Assembly: GCA_038064855.1 (NCBI GenBank)
Contig: JBBTSE010000002.1
Coordinates: 72,815 to 136,814, forward strand
Direction: 5' to 3'
Length of the DNA: 64,000 nucleotides
From: Patescibacteria group bacterium
GTDB lineage: Bacteria; Patescibacteriota; Minisyncoccia; Ryanbacterales; GWA2-47-10b
How positions within the stretch are numbered: position 1 is the stretch's first letter; each line of letters starts with the position of its first letter. The notes under the pieces are model-generated. The model did no database searches and was not told the origin of the DNA. It saw only the letters and a list, made by a program, of their open reading frames with translations. Made by a program: the position numbers and the translations under genes. Positions 5,504 to 20,824 of this stretch are shown piece by piece.

Positions 5504-5836
5504 ATGGCACGAGCAGCAGAAAAAACTCCAACCGCGACCAAGCTCCGCATTCGCATCCGCGCGTATGACAACAAGGTCATCGACGCGTCGGTCAAGCAGA
5601 TTGTAGAGACCGCGCGCAGGTATGGGGGCGAGATTGTAGGGCCGGTGCCGTTACCGACAGAAATCCGTAAGTACACGGTAAACCGCTCAACCTTCGTGCA
5701 TAAAAATGCCCGTGAGCAGTTTGAGATGCGAGTGCATAAGCGCATCATCGATATCAAGAACCCAACGCCCAAGATCATCGATGCGCTTACCAACCTCAAC
5801 CTTCCCGCCGGTGTTGATGTCGAAGTAAAGATGTAA
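5504..5836 (+). CDS. rpsJ: 30S ribosomal protein S10
   Basis: [40 protein letters not shown]... is a canonical S10. Confidence 0.95.
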
Positions 5837-5855
5837 AAAGGGTTCTGCCCTAAAC

Positions 5856-5882
5856 CAAAAACCGCCCTCGGGCGGTTTTTGG
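5856..5882 (+). terminator. Rho-independent terminator after rpsJ (copy 1 of a duplicated element)
   Basis: AAAACCGCCC-tcg-GGCGGTTTTTGG. The identical ~27-mer recurs at 6412-6440. Confidence 0.65.
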
Positions 5883-5894
5883 TATACTGTAAAC

Positions 5895-6143
5895 ATGAGA
5901 TATATTTTGTCGCCCCATGCAAAGTTGCGCATGAAGGAGCGATCGATACAGCAGAGTCTTCTTGAGGGAACTCTGGCGAATCCAACAAAAGTATTATATG
6001 ATGCAAGAGGTAGATTAATGTTTAAAAAACTCTATAAAAAGCGGCATACAACGAGACTATTGATAGTTGTTGGTGAAAAAGTAAAAGACACACTGCGCGT
6101 TATTACGGTTATAGAAACATCTAAAATTAAGAAATATTTATGA
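5895..6143 (+). CDS. DUF4258-family small protein (putative toxin-like partner of DUF2283)
   Basis: SPHAKLRMKERSI...LLIVVGEK...LRVITVIE matches the HAxxRMxERgI...lHvVv...viTvY pattern of DUF4258. It overlaps the next gene by 4 nt. Confidence 0.6.
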   Translation: MRYILSPHAKLRMKERSIQQSLLEGTLANPTKVLYDARGRLMFKKLYKKRHTTRLLIVVGEKVKDTLRVITVIETSKIKKYL

Positions 6144-6379
6144 ATAAACAACAAGGAAAAATTTCGTACGATCGAGGAAGTAGAGTGCTTTCTCTCGCCG
6201 TAGGTAAAGGCAAAAGCGTTGATTCTGATATCAGGGGCAATGTGGTCATTGATGTTGATAAAAAAGGCAATCCGGTACGCGTAGATATCCATAGTTTTAG
6301 TTTTGATGCTTTTCGTGCAGGCAAGGGCAAACTAGAACATTTCCTCGGTTCCAAGGCCAGGGTTGTCCAGTTGAGGTAA
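6140..6379 (+). CDS. DUF2283-family small protein (putative antitoxin-like partner)
   Basis: GKISYDRGSRVLSL...VVIDVDKKGNPVRVDI matches the kIsYDkeaDvLyI...iDld.eGrlvGiEI pattern of DUF2283. Confidence 0.6.
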   Translation: MNKQQGKISYDRGSRVLSLAVGKGKSVDSDIRGNVVIDVDKKGNPVRVDIHSFSFDAFRAGKGKLEHFLGSKARVVQLR

Positions 6380-6411
6380 TCTAACTATATTGGCAAGGAT
6401 TCTGTTCTATC

Positions 6412-6440
6412 AAAAACCGCCCTCGGGCGGTTTTTGGTTT
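6412..6440 (+). terminator. Rho-independent terminator (copy 2 of the duplicated rpsJ terminator)
   Basis: CAAAAACCGCCCTCGGGCGGTTTTTGG identical to 5856-5882. A downstream ...GGTATACTG... segment is also shared. Confidence 0.6.
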
Positions 6441-6798
6441 GAGGTGGTATACTGACAAAAGCATGAATATCTATATAAGGATTATTTTGTGGGGGCTACT
6501 TGTTTTTTGGCTGGTCGGTTCTGCTGTCCTATTGCCTAAATTTTATTGCGGAGTTGGGAACGCAGGCAAAGCTGGGTCAGCTGTTTTTAATCAGAGTGAT
6601 CCAAATTTTCGGCAACACAGTAAGGTGATTTTTGATGACTGCTCGTATCCAGCAGTTTTCAAAATCCTTCTTAAGAGGCGCTTGATTCTAGACTATATGC
6701 TCGGTGTTATTGGGTTACCATTAATTCTCATCTCACTTTTTTATGGCGGTCAATTTCTTTATAAGAAAATCTTTCGAAAACAATATGACCACAAATGA
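6439..6798 (+). CDS. Hypothetical small membrane protein
   Basis: Hydrophobic helices in the translation (IILWGLLVFWLVGSAVLL; VIGLPLILISLFYGG) and no recognisable family. Confidence 0.45.
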   Translation: MRWYTDKSMNIYIRIILWGLLVFWLVGSAVLLPKFYCGVGNAGKAGSAVFNQSDPNFRQHSKVIFDDCSYPAVFKILLKRRLILDYMLGVIGLPLILISLFYGGQFLYKKIFRKQYDHK

Positions 6799-7237
6799 AT
6801 TTACAAAGCCGGAGAATTTGGAAAAGTATTCTTTTCTCTGGTCAGAGGCGCGGCTTTTGGTAGCTGCCGTAGCGTTGTTCGCGGGCGGTATTCCAGCAGT
6901 GTATTTATTGCCGATTCCCTACCTATTTGTAGGTTTAGTAAGTACTCTCCTCACGCTCTCGTGGCTTGTTTCGGGCGCGGCATCAGCGTATCTTGGCTGG
7001 CGCTGGTATACGGGTGGGCAAAAAGTATTTGGCAAAAAAGATACGCGTGATACTGTCGCTTTTTTTGTCAGCGTAGTGTCAGGTATCAATCTCGGGCTCG
7101 TTCCAATTTTAGGCAACAATATTGGTATGAGTATCGCGTGGGGCGGATTTGTCTTTACCGTGACCGCTATTTTATATGTCGTTGCCGCAGTACATCTCTG
7201 GATGCGCTGGAACGCGCATGGCAAAAAAGTTTTTTAG
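6785..7237 (+). CDS. Hypothetical membrane protein (4 predicted TM segments)
   Basis: Start taken at the MTTNEF ATG to minimise overlap with the previous gene. Multiple hydrophobic helices. Confidence 0.45.
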   Translation: MTTNEFTKPENLEKYSFLWSEARLLVAAVALFAGGIPAVYLLPIPYLFVGLVSTLLTLSWLVSGAASAYLGWRWYTGGQKVFGKKDTRDTVAFFVSVVSGINLGLVPILGNNIGMSIAWGGFVFTVTAILYVVAAVHLWMRWNAHGKKVF

Positions 7238-7262
7238 AAATAAATCGCATACAAAGAAAATT

Positions 7263-7301
7263 CCCCAGTCACCGTGATGGTGACTGGGGTTTGCCGTTTG
7301 G
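7263..7301. terminator. Bidirectional-looking terminator hairpin between convergent genes
   Basis: CCCCAGTCACC-gtgat-GGTGACTGGGG followed by TTTGCCGTTTGG. Confidence 0.55.
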
Positions 7302-7322
7302 CATGCTCCGTTATACGCAGAG

Positions 7323-7697
7323 CTAGTGGGGGAGAGCGTAGGCTCGCACGGTGTCGGTGAGCTCGTTGGGCACGCCCGATGACTTCGGTACGAACGCCAT
7401 AGCTCCCAGCTTCACCGCCGCCTCGGCGATGCCAGTCATCGTCTCGCGTGAGTAGATGATGATGGGCATCTGGGGGTGTGTCTCGCGCATGCCCGAGACG
7501 AGCTGCATGCCGGGCCGAAACCCTCTGCCCGCCACAATCTCGATGACCATGATGTCAGGACGCTCTTCGTTTGCGATGACTCGCGCCTCCGCAAAGCTGT
7601 CTGTCTCGAGCAGTACTGCGTCCGGTTCGGCGTCTTTGAGCTTCTTGCGTACGCGTGCCCGATCCTCGGCACTTTCGTCCACGAGTAGTATCTTCAT
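7323..7697 (-). CDS. Single-domain response regulator (REC/CheY-like), GC-rich orphan
   Basis: MKILLVDESAEDR...DIMVIEIVAGRGFRPGMQL...MPIIIYS is a receiver-domain pattern with D and K positions. GGAGG lies 12 nt upstream of the MKIL ATG. GC is clearly higher than the surroundings. Confidence 0.7.
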   Translation of the reverse strand: MKILLVDESAEDRARVRKKLKDAEPDAVLLETDSFAEARVIANEERPDIMVIEIVAGRGFRPGMQLVSGMRETHPQMPIIIYSRETMTGIAEAAVKLGAMAFVPKSSGVPNELTDTVRAYALPH

Positions 7698-7865
7698 GGG
7701 TTGGTACATTCCTCCTTCTAATAATAAAAAATACCCCAAAACCTTTAAAGAGTCAATGTTTTGATGGGTAGACTCGTCCCACTCTGGACAGCTCTTTTTC
7801 GTTGTGCTACAAAGGGGTCATGTTTCTCTGGTGATTTCCCCCCAGATAGTGACGGTAAGGCCTAG

Positions 7866-7888
7866 CCCCGCCGTGCGGGGTGTTTTAT
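7866..7888 (+). promoter_or_regulatory. Terminator-like hairpin in the 5' leader of the rplC operon (possible attenuator)
   Basis: CCCCGC-cgt-GCGGGG followed by TGTTTTATT, ~35 nt upstream of the rplC ATG. Confidence 0.35.
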
Positions 7889-7921
7889 TACCTGATGGGA
7901 ACAGCTCCATAAGCGGGGTAT

Positions 7922-8464
7922 ATGAAAAAATTCATCCTCGGTAAAAAGCTCGAAATGAGCCAAATATTCAAAGACGACGGCACAGTAATCCCTGTGACCG
8001 TCATTCAAGCTGGCCCCGTCGAGATCTCTCAAGTAAAGGGCAAGGAAAAAGACGGTTATGAGGCAGTACAAGTCCTTTTCGGCAAAACTCGCAAAGAATT
8101 TCGTACGGAAGATTCATACGAAAAAGGCGGCAAAATCGATGTTTCGGTTTTTGCGGAAGGGGATTTTGTAAAAGTATCAGGCACCATGAAGGGTCGTGGT
8201 TTTCAAGGCGTGGTCAAGCGCCACGGCTTCAAGGGTGCTCCTAAGTCCCACGGTACCAAGCACGCCCACCGCGAGCCGGGTTCAATCGGTGCAGTATGGC
8301 CTCAGCGCGTACTCAAGGGTACTCGTATGGGTGGTCGTATGGGTGGTACTCGTATTACCGTAGAAAATCTGATGGTCGCCAAAGTCGATGCTGAGAAAAA
8401 CTTACTGTATGTACGCGGCGCGGTTCCGGGCGCTCGTGGTACACTCTTGGAAATTTCTGCATAA
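7922..8464 (+). CDS. rplC: 50S ribosomal protein L3
   Basis: GTMKGRGFQGVVKRHGF...GGTRITVENLMVAKVD is an L3 signature. Confidence 0.95.
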   Translation: MKKFILGKKLEMSQIFKDDGTVIPVTVIQAGPVEISQVKGKEKDGYEAVQVLFGKTRKEFRTEDSYEKGGKIDVSVFAEGDFVKVSGTMKGRGFQGVVKRHGFKGAPKSHGTKHAHREPGSIGAVWPQRVLKGTRMGGRMGGTRITVENLMVAKVDAEKNLLYVRGAVPGARGTLLEISA

Positions 8465-16245: not shown

Positions 16246-17505
16246 ATGGCAAATATGTGGCAGGCACTCAAAGACAAGGATTTACGCAGACGCATCCTCG
16301 TCGTGCTCGGATTTTTGGCTTTCTTTCGCTTTCTCGCCATTATTCCTATACCAGCTTTTGATCCACGGATTCGACGCGACCTCTCTGATAGTAACTTTTT
16401 AGGTCTTCTCAATATTTTTTCCGGAGGCGCACTCGACAATGTCTCGATTGTGATGCTTGGCGTCGGGCCCTATATCACCGCGTCTATCATCATGCAGCTT
16501 TTCACTATGATCTTTCCTTCACTCAAAGAGATGTATCAAGAAGACGGGGAGGCAGGCCGCAAAAGGTTCAATCAGTATTCGCGCCTGCTTGCGGTTCCTC
16601 TCGCGTTTCTCCAAGGATACGCGCTTTTGGCGCTTTTGGTACAGCAAAATCAGATTGGTCAGCTGGGTGGTTTTGATTTGTTTACCAATTTGATAGTGGT
16701 TACCGGAGGCGCAATCTTTCTTATGTGGATTGGCGAGGTGGTATCCGAATATGGCATCGGCAACGGTATCTCACTTTTGATTTTTGCTGGTATCGTAGCA
16801 GGCGTCCCCTCGAGTATTGGGCAGACACTTTTTGCCTATGATGCTTCACAATTACCGACTATCCTCGCGTTTTTGATTGCAGCACCCCTCATCATCGCGG
16901 GCACTGTTATCATTACCGAGGCAGAACGACCGATCCCAATCTCGTATACCAAGCGTGTGCGCGGCATGAAGATGTATGGTGGTGTTTCGACCTATCTTCC
17001 ACTTCGTGTAAACCAAGCTGGCGTAATTCCAATCATTTTCGCGATCTCGATTTTACTTTTCCCGTCACTCATCGGTCAGATGTTTGCATCGTCAAAATAT
17101 CCGGCGATCGCGAGTGCGGGAGCCACAATCTTGAACATTGCAAGCAATCAATGGATTTATGGGGGCGTGTATTTCTTGCTGGTATTTTTGTTTACTTACT
17201 TCTATACATCGGTGACATTTGATCCTGACGCCATTTCTTCAAACTTGCAAAAACAAGGCGGGTTCATTCCCGGCATTCGTCCTGGTCCTTCAACCTCTGA
17301 CTACCTTCGCAAACTCATTACACGCATCACGCTTGTCGGCGCACTTTTCTTGGGCGCTATCGCGGTTTTGCCGCTCGCCATGCAAACGATCACCGGTACG
17401 CAAGCGCTCGCTCTTGGTGGTACCGCGCTCCTCATCGTAGTCTCGGTGGTTATTGAAACCATCAAGCAAGTGCGCGCGCAGATGACTCTTCGAGAATACG
17501 ACTAG
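16246..17505 (+). CDS. secY: Preprotein translocase subunit SecY
   Basis: 419 aa with 10 TM helices, LGVGPYITASIIMQL and other SecY motifs. Confidence 0.95.
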   Translation: MANMWQALKDKDLRRRILVVLGFLAFFRFLAIIPIPAFDPRIRRDLSDSNFLGLLNIFSGGALDNVSIVMLGVGPYITASIIMQLFTMIFPSLKEMYQEDGEAGRKRFNQYSRLLAVPLAFLQGYALLALLVQQNQIGQLGGFDLFTNLIVVTGGAIFLMWIGEVVSEYGIGNGISLLIFAGIVAGVPSSIGQTLFAYDASQLPTILAFLIAAPLIIAGTVIITEAERPIPISYTKRVRGMKMYGGVSTYLPLRVNQAGVIPIIFAISILLFPSLIGQMFASSKYPAIASAGATILNIASNQWIYGGVYFLLVFLFTYFYTSVTFDPDAISSNLQKQGGFIPGIRPGPSTSDYLRKLITRITLVGALFLGAIAVLPLAMQTITGTQALALGGTALLIVVSVVIETIKQVRAQMTLREYD

Positions 17506-17567
17506 ATGCCGTTAAAAACGAGTTCCCATCATTAGTAGAATTCGTTTTTTAAGGGTACTATTGTGAT

Positions 17568-17840
17568 ATGAGTAAAGGTGCGGAGCGGGCAATCTTGTTA
17601 AGTATAGGCATTCTTGCAACCCTCAGCGTTTCTTTTTGGATGGGGTTGTTCGCTAGTATCATCCCGATTGGCACTTCTTTCGGAATATACTTTGCAAGTA
17701 AGGCGTCTCAGTCAAAAGAAAATCCTCAACGAATAAAATATATCGTGCTATTTATTCTTTCCTTGTTATTCATGGTATTGGGCGTAGTGTTCATTGATAT
17801 GTATATTGATACTAATTTTTTAGGACGCAACTTCCCTTGA
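17568..17840 (+). CDS. Hypothetical small membrane protein
   Basis: Three hydrophobic helices and no family match. Confidence 0.4.
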   Translation: MSKGAERAILLSIGILATLSVSFWMGLFASIIPIGTSFGIYFASKASQSKENPQRIKYIVLFILSLLFMVLGVVFIDMYIDTNFLGRNFP

Positions 17841-17864
17841 CAAAAGATTATCTTAAGATAAACT

Positions 17865-18113
17865 TTGTGTATGAAAACAAATATTGTGGGGTTTAAGGAG
17901 TTACGAGAAGATGCTGATAAATACATCGCTCAAGTTCAAAAGGGGCGATCTTTTGTGGTAGTTCGCCGCTCAAAGCCTATTTTTAAAATGGTTCCTGTTG
18001 ATGAATGGGGCGATGAAGGTGTGTGGGAGACAGTCGCTGATTTCCGCACGCTTCATCCAAAAGGCGTTCCCGCAACCGATGTATTGAGAGTGTTGAAGAA
18101 GCTTCGTGGATAA
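17865..18113 (+). CDS. Putative type II antitoxin (Phd/YefM-like)
   Basis: ELREDADKYIAQVQKGRSFVVVRRSKPIFKMVPVDEW resembles the Phd/YefM pattern (EL...GEPVVITRRGKPVAVLVS). It overlaps the downstream RelE-like gene by 8 nt. Confidence 0.5.
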   Translation: MCMKTNIVGFKELREDADKYIAQVQKGRSFVVVRRSKPIFKMVPVDEWGDEGVWETVADFRTLHPKGVPATDVLRVLKKLRG

Positions 18114-18345
18114 GATTGAAAAGTTTCTACGAAAACTTTCCCAAAAAGAGCGGGAAGTTGTCAATCATATCATCGAAAAAGTGTTATCAAACGATACTCG
18201 TGATCTTGATGTAAAGAAACTGAAAGATGAATACAAGCTTTTTCGTGTACGAAAGGGAAATATCCGTATAGTATTTTTTCAAGACGATTCCGTCACGCGC
18301 ATCGTGTATATTAGGCGTCGTGGCGAGAAGACCTACAATTTGTGA
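18106..18345 (+). CDS. RelE/ParE-family toxin (GTG start)
   Basis: ...YKLFRVRKGNIRIVFFQDDSVTRIVYIRRRGEKTY matches the RelE core (yrlRvGdyRiiY...il.i.hRkd.Y). Confidence 0.6.
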   Translation: MDKIEKFLRKLSQKEREVVNHIIEKVLSNDTRDLDVKKLKDEYKLFRVRKGNIRIVFFQDDSVTRIVYIRRRGEKTYNL

Positions 18346-18373
18346 AAATACGAGAGCATGCAATACTAGAGGC

Positions 18374-19066
18374 ATGACCCCGCCCCGCCCTGCTGTTATC
18401 ATCTTCATCGGCCCGCCGGGAGCTGGCAAAGGCACACAGGCGACACTTTTTTCTGAATCAAAACCCGGATATCGTCATTTTGACACGGGTCGCGCGATTG
18501 AGCGCGCGCTCTATGATCCAAGGCGAAAAGATGAACCCGAGATACAGCTCGAGCGTGAACGCTTTGAAAAAGGGCTTCTGACAGGTTCGCATTTCAAGAT
18601 GCAGATCATTACTGACGGTATCCAAAAAATAGCACACGAAGGATTCGGTATCATTTTGTCAGGATCTCCGCGCACGAGAGACGAGGCGGAATTTATCATC
18701 CCATTTTTATCAAATCTCTACGGCGATGGGGCTCTGGTGATCGTGCATATCGATGTGCCGGCAGAAGTTTCCATCAATCGTAATTCACGCCGCCGTGTGT
18801 GCAAAAAATGTGGTCAGCCACTCATCTCAAATCCTGAAAATGACGCGATGGATTTTTGCCCCGTGTGCGGAGGCGAACTTATGAAGAGAGTGCTCGACAA
18901 AGAAGATATCATAGAAAAGCGTCTTATCGAGTATATGCGTCACACCAAGGAAATTATCCCCTATGCAGTAGCGCTTGGTGTACAGGTTCTTGATGTATCT
19001 GGCGAAGGGACGCCCGAAGAGATTTGCGAGCGTGTGCAGAAAAAGATTGCAAGTATCAATACATGA
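18374..19066 (+). CDS. adk: Adenylate kinase (zinc-lid type)
   Basis: IFIGPPGAGKGTQA P-loop and a CKKCGQ...CPVCGG zinc lid. Confidence 0.92.
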   Translation: MTPPRPAVIIFIGPPGAGKGTQATLFSESKPGYRHFDTGRAIERALYDPRRKDEPEIQLERERFEKGLLTGSHFKMQIITDGIQKIAHEGFGIILSGSPRTRDEAEFIIPFLSNLYGDGALVIVHIDVPAEVSINRNSRRRVCKKCGQPLISNPENDAMDFCPVCGGELMKRVLDKEDIIEKRLIEYMRHTKEIIPYAVALGVQVLDVSGEGTPEEICERVQKKIASINT

Positions 19067-19847: not shown

Positions 19848-20426
19848 ATGAAAAGTAGAGTGAGGGGGTCACTTCTTTTTGGGTGCTTCGGTCTTCTGTC
19901 CGGGCTGATCTCGTCGGTTGGGCTGGTAGTTTTGAATCTGGATATATTTAAAAGCTTGGATTGGGCAGATCTATATCCTATTTATGTTCCAGGGTTTATA
20001 TTCGGTATCGTAATGGCGATGCCATTTTTATTATATAAGAGACGATTCAATGCCCGCTCCATCATCCTTTGGATTATTGGTTCCGGGGGTGCATACATGA
20101 TCGCTTATTGTTCTGTCATTTTGCTTTATTTTGCGGAAATTCCTCTTTCGTTGATTATGTTTTTTATTGCAGGTTGTGTTGGGGCAATGTTCATGTTGAC
20201 CGCATTCTCATACTGTCTTGTAAAAATAAGACCGATCCCATTTTTATTACTCACTACTCTTGGCGGAGTTCTTGCGCTTTCTTTTTTGACTGATATTCAT
20301 ATTCTTTTCCTAAAAAGTGTCTTCTCCGAATACGGTGTACTTTACATTGTTTGGCAAACAGGGATGGCATCGGCAATTGGCTGGACTATTTGTCCTAGTG
20401 AAAATGCTCAAGTAAAAAATGGTTGA
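19848..20426 (+). CDS. Hypothetical membrane protein (about 6 TM segments)
   Basis: Hydrophobic throughout, with no family match. Confidence 0.4.
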   Translation: MKSRVRGSLLFGCFGLLSGLISSVGLVVLNLDIFKSLDWADLYPIYVPGFIFGIVMAMPFLLYKRRFNARSIILWIIGSGGAYMIAYCSVILLYFAEIPLSLIMFFIAGCVGAMFMLTAFSYCLVKIRPIPFLLLTTLGGVLALSFLTDIHILFLKSVFSEYGVLYIVWQTGMASAIGWTICPSENAQVKNG

Positions 20427-20824
20427 TCATGACTCGTTTTCTCGGTATTGATTATGGTGGGAAGCGCGTAGGACTCGCGCTTTCTGATGATGCGGGCACG
20501 ATGGCGTTTCCGCATAAAATCATTGAAAATACCAAGCGGCTCGTAGATGATATTGGTGATTTAGTAAAAAAAGAAGAGATTGCATGCATTGTAGTGGGCT
20601 TACCGCGTGCTCTCGGTGATATGCACGATACTGATATGACTGCCACGGTGCGCGCGTTTGCAAAAGATCTCGAATCGCTCGGTTTGCCTGTCGAGCTTGA
20701 AGATGAATTTTTGTCGTCGAGTGAGGTAACGCGGCAGGGGGGTACCAAGGGCGCGATTGACGCGTCAGCGGCCGCCATTATCCTCCAAAGCTACTTGGAG
20801 CGGCGAAAAAATATGCTACTATAA
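20423..20824 (+). CDS. ruvX: Putative pre-16S rRNA nuclease / Holliday junction resolvase-like YqgF (RuvX)
   Basis: FLGIDYGGKRVGLALSD...IVVGLP is the YqgF/RuvX RNase H-like pattern. Confidence 0.85.
   Translation: MIMTRFLGIDYGGKRVGLALSDDAGTMAFPHKIIENTKRLVDDIGDLVKKEEIACIVVGLPRALGDMHDTDMTATVRAFAKDLESLGLPVELEDEFLSSSEVTRQGGTKGAIDASAAAIILQSYLERRKNMLL

Follow-up and report, generated by a model that had tools for sequence, protein, structure and literature searches.

A probable Phd/YefM-RelE toxin-antitoxin cassette inserted between secY and adk in the spc operon of a Candidatus Ryanbacteria genome

The secY-adk Interval and Its Genes

The DNA studied here is a stretch of 64,000 nucleotides from a Patescibacteria group bacterium (Ryanbacterales; GenBank assembly GCA_038064855.1, contig JBBTSE010000002.1, positions 72,815 to 136,814; hereafter the window, in whose own numbering all positions are given), and its subject is a pair of small genes, resembling a type II toxin-antitoxin (TA) system, that lies between secY and adk in the spc operon of the ribosomal super-operon. 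The order on the + strand is secY (16246–17505, an open reading frame (ORF) of 419 amino acids (aa) that ends with the TAG at 17503–17505 and in an identical contig matches PF00344, SecY), a 90-aa ORF with long hydrophobic stretches (17568–17840, stop codon TGA at 17838–17840), the antitoxin ORF, the toxin ORF (18106–18345, 79 aa) and adk (18374–19066; PF00406), whose product is 85% identical to the Adk of the closest relative, a Candidatus Ryanbacteria locus (L006). The original prediction had placed the pair between a small hydrophobic ORF after secY and adk, with a GTG start for the toxin and an overlap of 8 nt between the two genes (GTGGATAA, 18106–18113), and in all of this it agrees with what is found. 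It had also given the antitoxin 82 aa; an ORF of that length does exist from a TTG at 17865 (17865–18113), but the true start is most likely the ATG at 17871, which yields 80 aa (MKTNIVG..., 17871–18113), is kept in the closest homologous loci and is the choice of the gene callers, while the TTG falls at the edge of the –10 box of the promoter described below.

The adk gene was taken to start at the ATG at 18374 (MTPPRPAVIIFIGPPGAGKGTQ), 28 nt past the toxin stop codon. A start at the GTG at 18320, with which adk would overlap the toxin gene, was rejected because the gene callers agree on the ATG and because the protein read from it can be aligned over its full length with the Adk of L006. An artefact of assembly is excluded for the pair because the exact toxin protein is recorded on seven contigs (one of them from a Hainich groundwater assembly, and six from similar places); in NCBI it is annotated as hypothetical and comes from a Patescibacteria metagenome-assembled genome (MAG).

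The Antitoxin and the Toxin

Modules of the Phd/YefM-RelE kind belong to the commonest type II TA systems. The product of 17871–18113 can be assigned to the Phd/YefM antitoxin family from the profile matches of its N-terminal domain: it passes the NCBIfam model TIGR01552 (phd_fam) with 23.9 bits against a cutoff of 20.8, and matches the Pfam family PF02604 (PhdYeFM_antitox) with an E-value of 1.5e-6 and 28.3 bits, slightly below the gathering score of 29.8. The 80-aa partners in two homologous loci (L001 and L002) match PF02604 weakly and that in a third (L005) with an E-value of 4.5e-5, and the best Protein Data Bank (PDB) match of a family profile of 17 homologues is the antitoxin VapB46 (E 0.0037).

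Taken by itself, the toxin has a single Pfam match, a weak one to PF05973 (Gp49; E 0.008), and none to PF05016; it is assigned to the RelE/ParE superfamily because its family supports this despite the weak individual match. The homologues, of about 80 aa, amounted to 120 matches in a word-indexed search, several of them named RelE/ParE-family toxins by NCBI or JGI, and an exhaustive search gave a family of 831 cluster representatives at E <= 1e-10. PF05016 is matched by 32 of 53 sampled homologues (best E 3.4e-6), and the family profile finds in the PDB the RelE3 of Methanocaldococcus jannaschii (3bpq_B, E 1.2e-6) and the aRelE of Pyrococcus horikoshii (1wmi_A, E 1.3e-4), with no ParE among its PDB sequence matches. 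The AlphaFold2 model computed from the family alignment, with a predicted local distance difference test (pLDDT) score of 85, starts with a helix (residues 2–9), continues with a second one (13–27) and then four strands, and has no helix after the sheet. Its top Foldseek matches are RelE structures, with template-modelling (TM) scores of 0.64–0.76 and a probability of 1.00; the best is the RelE of M. jannaschii (TM 0.76, 23% identity), and RelE1 and RelE2 of Mycobacterium tuberculosis and the RelE of Thermus thermophilus are further top matches. Through its homologues and its modelled fold the toxin is thus recognizable as a member of the RelE/ParE superfamily, and both family labels of the original prediction, Phd/YefM-like and RelE/ParE-like, have found profile support.

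All members of the toxin family have R47 and R54, and at least 90% of them have R49, K50, R72 and Y77. When the family was aligned by hhalign with the RelE of Escherichia coli (with its sequence checked against the PDB), a weak match was obtained (E 1.6e-4, probability 50%) in which R47, R54 and R72 fall on K52, R61 and R81; K54 of RelE corresponds to a gap in the alignment, and the equivalence of Y77 with Y87 is by spacing alone. R72 also aligns with R85 of P. horikoshii aRelE. The toxin is read here as a putative RelE-type mRNA interferase.

The alternative that the toxin is a ParE-like gyrase poison, or some other RelE/ParE member without RNase activity, and not a ribosome-dependent mRNA endonuclease, can appeal to the name of PF05016 itself, ParE_toxin, a family that spans both activities, to a fold that by itself cannot tell RelE from ParE, and to the variety of RelE/ParE-superfamily toxins with which Phd/YefM-type antitoxins are paired. 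We regard it as very unlikely, since the best matches in sequence and in structure are all RelE proteins from the four organisms named above, ParE structures (6x0a, 5cw7 and 7ycs) first appear at Foldseek rank 28 with probabilities of 0.21–0.30 and TM scores of 0.41–0.54, and the conserved arginines align, in the hhalign comparison just described, with catalytic positions of RelE.

Both reading frames are intact, and the toxin of the window retains all the family-invariant residues. In comparisons with three homologous loci (L001, L005 and L096), whose antitoxins are 81–84% identical to that of the window, nonsynonymous divergence (pN) is 0.07–0.11 for the antitoxin and 0.18–0.20 for the toxin, while synonymous sites are saturated (pS 0.60–0.85). 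With pN far below pS, both genes are under purifying selection and probably functional. A decayed or domesticated remnant in which the toxin is inactive, such as a transcription factor derived from the antitoxin alongside a harmless partner, is a highly improbable description of such a pair: chromosomal TA loci do often decay, the toxin is minimal at 79 aa and has no Pfam match that would identify it individually, and two related loci carry stop codons in the toxin frame (see below), but here the frames, the invariant residues and the substitution pattern are all preserved, and about 80 aa is the usual length in the family of 831 cluster representatives.

Promoter, Palindrome and Start Region

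Upstream of the antitoxin gene lies a sigma-70-type promoter, TTGACA and TAAACT separated by 16 nt (17837–17864, + strand), which is the top-scoring promoter-like site in the region (10/12). Its spacer and –10 box are covered by a 24-nt palindrome, AAAGATTATCTT followed directly by AAGATAAACTTT (17843–17866; an inverted repeat with 92% complementarity and no gap), whose 14-nt core, TTATCTTAAGATAA (17848–17861), occurs only once in the 64 kb of the window, where 0.01 occurrences are expected. The palindrome is perfect over its 24 nt in several homologous loci, and is a putative operator for the antitoxin or for the TA complex. The stop codon of the 90-aa ORF (17838–17840) sits within the –35 box.

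Because the ATG at 17871 follows the –10 box by only 6 nt and no Shine-Dalgarno sequence is visible, the mRNA of the cassette is probably leaderless, and the same distance is 6–8 nt in most related loci. For comparison, the TA transcripts of M. tuberculosis are described as predominantly leaderless in one report (PMC8485053).

The extent of the conserved unit can be read from the homologous loci L001, L002 and L005, where DNA similarity to the window starts exactly at the TTGACA at 17837 and stops at the stop codon of the toxin, with unrelated flanks on both sides. A scan of metagenome contigs with the motif TTGACAAAAGNTTATCTTAAGNTAAACTT returned 22 further loci. The promoter is conserved in these and in L001, L002 and L005, and across all the further related loci retrieved the promoter-operator was found upstream of the pair in 29 of 29. 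Since the motif-scan set had been selected by the motif itself, four loci (P0013, P0022, P0029 and P0033) were chosen by toxin protein similarity alone as a control for circularity; all four have a Phd partner and, upstream, a TTGACA with the palindrome core or a close variant of it, the promoter being slightly changed in each. As these loci, independent of the motif, carry it too, the promoter-operator is a conserved part of the unit. The conserved block has the pattern TTGACA, then AAAG-TTATCTTAAGATAA-ACTT including the –10 box, and it is more conserved than the coding sequence, as would be expected of an autoregulated type II module.

One related locus shows the start region in an altered form. 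In L119 (2601–2790) about 145 nt of A/T-rich DNA lie between the promoter-operator, TTGACAccAAGGTTATCTTAAGATAACCTT, and the start of the antitoxin gene. This DNA is framed by an inverted repeat (agtcccgcacataa ... ttatgtgcggga) and resembles a miniature insertion at the leaderless start.

Related Cassettes and Their Genomic Settings

The two genes travel together. A Phd-like ORF accompanies a toxin of this family in 23 of the 25 complete loci of the motif-scan and closest-homologue sets and in all four toxin-selected loci; within the motif-scan set the Phd-like ORF lies directly downstream of the motif in 22/22 loci and a RelE-like ORF comes next in 19/22, the exceptions being L088 and L104, with stop codons in the toxin frame, and L094, which ends inside the antitoxin gene. 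The motif-scan loci are 36–51% identical to the window in the antitoxin and 34–52% in the toxin, L096 being closer. Pairing of antitoxin and toxin is thus conserved to an extent greater than chance, in the gene arrangement of type II TA systems. The sequence L088:3499–3800, located after secA and identical in L104, combines an intact antitoxin gene with a toxin frame containing stop codons and is an example of toxin decay.

The settings of the related cassettes are diverse. About 10 nt after secA in three loci (L087, L088 at 348–878, and L104) and directly after eno-gpmA in five (L089, L094, L095, L107 and L108), the cassette is also found between the genes of a penicillin-binding protein and a Mur ligase (L105:1944–2474), after a flavoprotein gene (L100), next to TrmB (L093 and L106), beside a YafQ TA pair (L096), and near topA/dprA, NDK and ruvB/tsaE/polA. 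Most are co-directional with their housekeeping neighbours and very close to them, and none is located in a ribosomal operon. Neither conserved attachment sites nor mobility genes were found beside them. In L108 (2135–2665) the upstream gene takes its stop codon from the TTGACA of the –35 box, just like the 90-aa ORF in the window, and in L099 (7375–7968) the cassette ends at a tRNA-Arg gene (7375–7447, same strand), which fits a tRNA-adjacent insertion of accessory DNA.

In the window itself, a hidden Markov model search of all six frames found no other copies of the toxin-antitoxin family. The literature yielded nothing on TA pairs within the spc operon, or in ribosomal operons of the candidate phyla radiation (CPR) in particular, nor any experimental data on a member of this CPR-centred Phd/RelE family.

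The Insertion Relative to the Closest Relative

The comparison of synteny between secY and adk that the original prediction had called for is provided by L006, with SecY, Adk and Map identities of 93%, 85% and 79%. From the secY stop codon to the adk ATG there are 868 nt in the window and 18 nt in L006, so that the segment of about 850 bp at 17506–18355, which holds a hairpin, the 90-aa ORF and the TA cassette and is missing at the same site in L006, counts as inserted when the two are compared. By eye, the ~18 nt that directly precede the adk ATG of the window resemble the spacer of L006, the MAFFT alignment of the junction being poor, and the G+C content across 17600–18300 is 0.32–0.44, compared with 0.47–0.55 in secY and adk.

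How unusual such an insertion is was judged from a scan for SecY that covered 80 related CPR loci, about 72 of them informative for the secY-adk-map junction. Unrelated genes, 0.5–3.5 kb in total length, lie between secY, adk and map in ~20 of the ~72 genomes (L013–L084), while a Phd or RelE homologue is present near secY in 0/80. The junction is thus permissive in CPR genomes, and of the genomes sampled this one alone has a TA pair at it. From their translations, which were read and not checked against profiles, the inserts elsewhere include kinase-like and Nudix-like proteins, cation antiporters, a second adk, an ABC transporter and small membrane proteins.

Directly after the secY stop codon, the inserted DNA begins with an A-tract/U-tract hairpin (17509–17554, + strand; an inverted repeat with arms of 17 nt and 82% complementarity) that is missing in L006. 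As RNA, the segment 17503–17566 folds with –18.7 kcal/mol (z = –4.6), and none of 200 shuffled sequences is as stable. The hairpin, A/U-rich and not called by a scan for G+C-rich terminators, is terminator-like and may uncouple the downstream genes from the spc transcript. No comparable structure was found between the toxin stop codon and adk, where the segment 18330–18380 folds no better than its shuffles (z –0.67), and an Rfam search of 17300–18500 returned nothing. Because the hairpin after secY lies in the inserted DNA and none precedes adk, it is possible that adk and map are transcribed at least partly from the promoter of the cassette.

The 90-aa ORF is an ORFan: it has no Pfam or NCBIfam match above noise, and a collection of 5.8 billion proteins returns only the ORF itself. 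The 331-nt segment containing it shows DNA similarity to none of the fetched loci, and the upstream flanks of the homologous cassettes are unrelated to it; the membrane ORF was for these reasons rejected as a part of the cassette. At the two ends of the insertion there is a 13-nt imperfect direct repeat, TACGACTAGATGC at 17497–17509 (which holds the secY stop codon) and TACGAGAGCATGC at 18349–18361. Its position is suggestive of a degraded target-site duplication, but it was set aside as such, since 9 of 13 bases match, a quality equalled by seven chance repeats in the same kilobase.

Interpretation and Proposed Mechanism

Taken together, we read the locus as a self-contained Phd/YefM-RelE type II TA cassette that was acquired horizontally and settled in the 18-nt secY-adk spacer of a Candidatus Ryanbacteria genome, in the same direction as its neighbours, and give this reading a probability of about 0.8. 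The cassette would have arrived with, or next to, the hairpin and the ORFan ORF, and is probably an ordinary TA pair, a selfish or defensive cargo; none of the PADLOC-DB defence models gave a meaningful match to either of its proteins. Its position in the spc operon is most likely incidental, because CPR genomes are compact and co-directional and nearly any tolerated insertion point in them lies between housekeeping genes. The original prediction had found it curious that toxins directed at translation should be embedded in the operon of the translation apparatus; a functional link of this kind is unsupported, because the cassette brings a promoter of its own and related cassettes occupy unrelated contexts.

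Several points weigh against this interpretation. The toxin by itself stays below every Pfam threshold and the antitoxin is 1.5 bits short of the PF02604 gathering score; the alignment with E. coli RelE has a probability of just 50%, with Y77 and Y87 outside the aligned block; and the single-sequence AlphaFold2 model of the antitoxin is poor (pLDDT 55), so that the order of its elements (two helices, two strands, a disordered stretch and a C-terminal helix), compatible with Phd/YefM as it is, is unreliable. L006 is the sole close relative covering the junction, the loci of the other close Ryanbacteria (L109–L112) ending about 2 kb short of it; neither a mobility gene nor a convincing target duplication explains how the cassette moves; and the toxicity of the toxin, its neutralisation, the binding of the operator and the start of transcription are predictions.

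By analogy with known systems, the module would work like those of the RelBE and YefM-YoeB class. The N-terminal Phd/YefM domain of the antitoxin would bind the 24-nt palindrome and repress the promoter, alone or in complex with the toxin, and transcription would begin at or beside the ATG at 17871, giving a leaderless mRNA on which the toxin could be translated by coupling via the GTGGATAA overlap. The C-terminal part of the antitoxin is expected to wrap around the toxin and neutralise it; upon loss of the labile antitoxin, the free toxin would enter the ribosomal A site and cleave the mRNA, with arrest of translation.

If the hairpin ended the spc transcript and the TA promoter drove adk-map, the cassette could have been co-opted as a regulator of the downstream half of the operon, expression of the two genes following the antitoxin:toxin ratio and the toxin being tied to the synthesis of the translation apparatus. 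The strong hairpin directly after secY, within the inserted DNA, the distance of just 28 nt, free of hairpins, from the toxin stop to the adk ATG, the fact that the best promoter-like site of the region belongs to the cassette and the retention of the arrangement on all seven contigs carrying the toxin gene speak in favour of co-option. We nevertheless hold it to be unlikely, given that the hairpin is A/U-rich and missed by the terminator scan, that the closest relative and 79 other CPR genomes lack the cassette at this position, and that members of the family occupy many unrelated contexts. Still doubtful, but worth stating, is a combined view in which a "plug-and-play" cassette, leaderless and hence expressed wherever it has landed, also takes over the transcription of adk-map through its promoter and the hairpin and places adenylate kinase and methionine aminopeptidase under TA-type autoregulation. 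The first half of this view starts from a promoter-operator of ~30 bp that is nearly unchanged while the proteins have diverged to ~40–50% identity, and self-expression without a leader would in turn allow the cassette to settle inside tight essential operons such as spc and the cell-wall cluster, after secA, or at eno-gpmA.

Comparison With Known RelE Systems and Significance

Among the closest known systems are the archaeal RelBE pairs, RelE3-RelB3 of M. jannaschii (3bpq) and aRelE-aRelB of P. horikoshii (1wmi), which like the window have a short RelE with two N-terminal helices on a four-stranded sheet and whose FRVRKGxxRIIY and C-terminal RR motifs align with the toxin family. They differ in that the host of the window is a bacterium of the CPR, that toxin identity is about 23%, and that their partners are named RelB whereas the antitoxin described here matches Phd/YefM profiles. 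The RelBE1 (9g12) and RelBE2 (3g5o) of M. tuberculosis, whose toxins are among the top structural matches, share with YefM-YoeB and Axe-Txe the gene order seen in the window, antitoxin first and toxin second with overlapping genes. In these four systems the toxin is of the RelE superfamily and the antitoxin of the Phd/YefM type, and a palindromic operator at the promoter provides autoregulation. The toxin of the window is shorter than theirs, at 79 aa, and is not of the YoeB type, and the operator core TTATCTTAAGATAA and the apparently leaderless design are specific to the CPR-centred family. E. coli RelBE (4fxe and 4v7k) has a toxin of the same superfamily, for which cleavage of mRNA in the A site can be supposed likewise in the window; it differs in its RelB antitoxin, where the window has a Phd/YefM protein, the toxin match is weak, as already noted, and a further difference is that the model of the window toxin opens with a helix and lacks one behind the sheet.

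As a gene pair the cassette is routine, several homologues being already named as RelE/ParE-family toxins by NCBI, and what goes beyond routine annotation are the conserved, putatively leaderless promoter-operator and the variable junctions of the super-operon alone. To our knowledge, almost no promoters are known in CPR organisms, and a conserved promoter-operator placed for leaderless expression could serve as a defined regulatory element. Accessory cargo is tolerated exactly between two essential genes even in the most conserved operon of a streamlined CPR genome, and variability at rpsJ-rplC and secY-adk-map matters where the quality of MAGs or horizontal transfer is judged by the synteny or composition of ribosomal operons. 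If adk-map were indeed read from the promoter of the cassette, the locus would be an example from nature of essential-gene expression rewired by a selfish module.

A Second Pair Between rpsJ and rplC and Other Features of the Super-operon

The original prediction had counted the pair as the second TA-like insertion in the same super-operon and had seen in this a tolerated hotspot. The other pair is real: after rpsJ (5504–5836) follow a DUF4258 ORF (5895–6143) and a DUF2283 ORF (6140–6379), both above their Pfam cutoffs, with 29.5 bits against 25 and 24.9 bits against 23. The hotspot holds in so far as the secY-adk-map junction receives unrelated inserts in ~20 of the ~72 informative genomes and the rpsJ-rplC interval is variable too; a TA pair at the former junction is found in 0/80 of the related loci. 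The sizes of the two pairs are identical (82 and 79 aa), but paralogy was rejected, as they show no BLASTP similarity and belong to different Pfam families. PADLOC-DB defence models had no meaningful match for the DUF4258/DUF2283 pair, and no paper mentioning the two families together was found in the literature.

On either side of the pair stands a 26-nt terminator-like hairpin, AAAAACCGCCCTCGGGCGGTTTTTGG (5857–5882 and 6412–6437). The two are identical, have no further copy in the window and are each followed within a few bases by GGTATACTG; judged from the sequence, they look like the duplication scar of an insertion. The whole gap between rpsJ and rplC (which starts at 7922) measures ~2.1 kb (5837–7921) and holds, past the pair, two ORFs with long hydrophobic stretches and an antisense response-regulator gene.

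The content of this interval varies among four close Ryanbacteria contigs (L109–L112, S10 identity 97–98%). An AIPR abortive-infection gene is present in L109, nothing extra in L110, and DUF4258/DUF2283 genes, at 83% and 89% identity, together with several ORFs in L111 and L112. An ORF of ~150 aa matching window positions 6743–7237 is kept in all four, and in each an antisense response-regulator gene is called beside rplC. Directly upstream of the DUF4258 gene, L111 and L112 carry a copy, 27 residues long, of the N-terminus of the ~150-aa ORF.

At its other end, the ribosomal super-operon of this genome stops at map. In bacteria map is commonly followed by infA-rpmJ-rpsM-rpsK-rpoA, genes that were not located there; the positions after map are occupied by a 192-aa ORF (19848–20426) with long hydrophobic stretches and no Pfam match, then by ruvX (20423–20824) and a glycosyltransferase gene.

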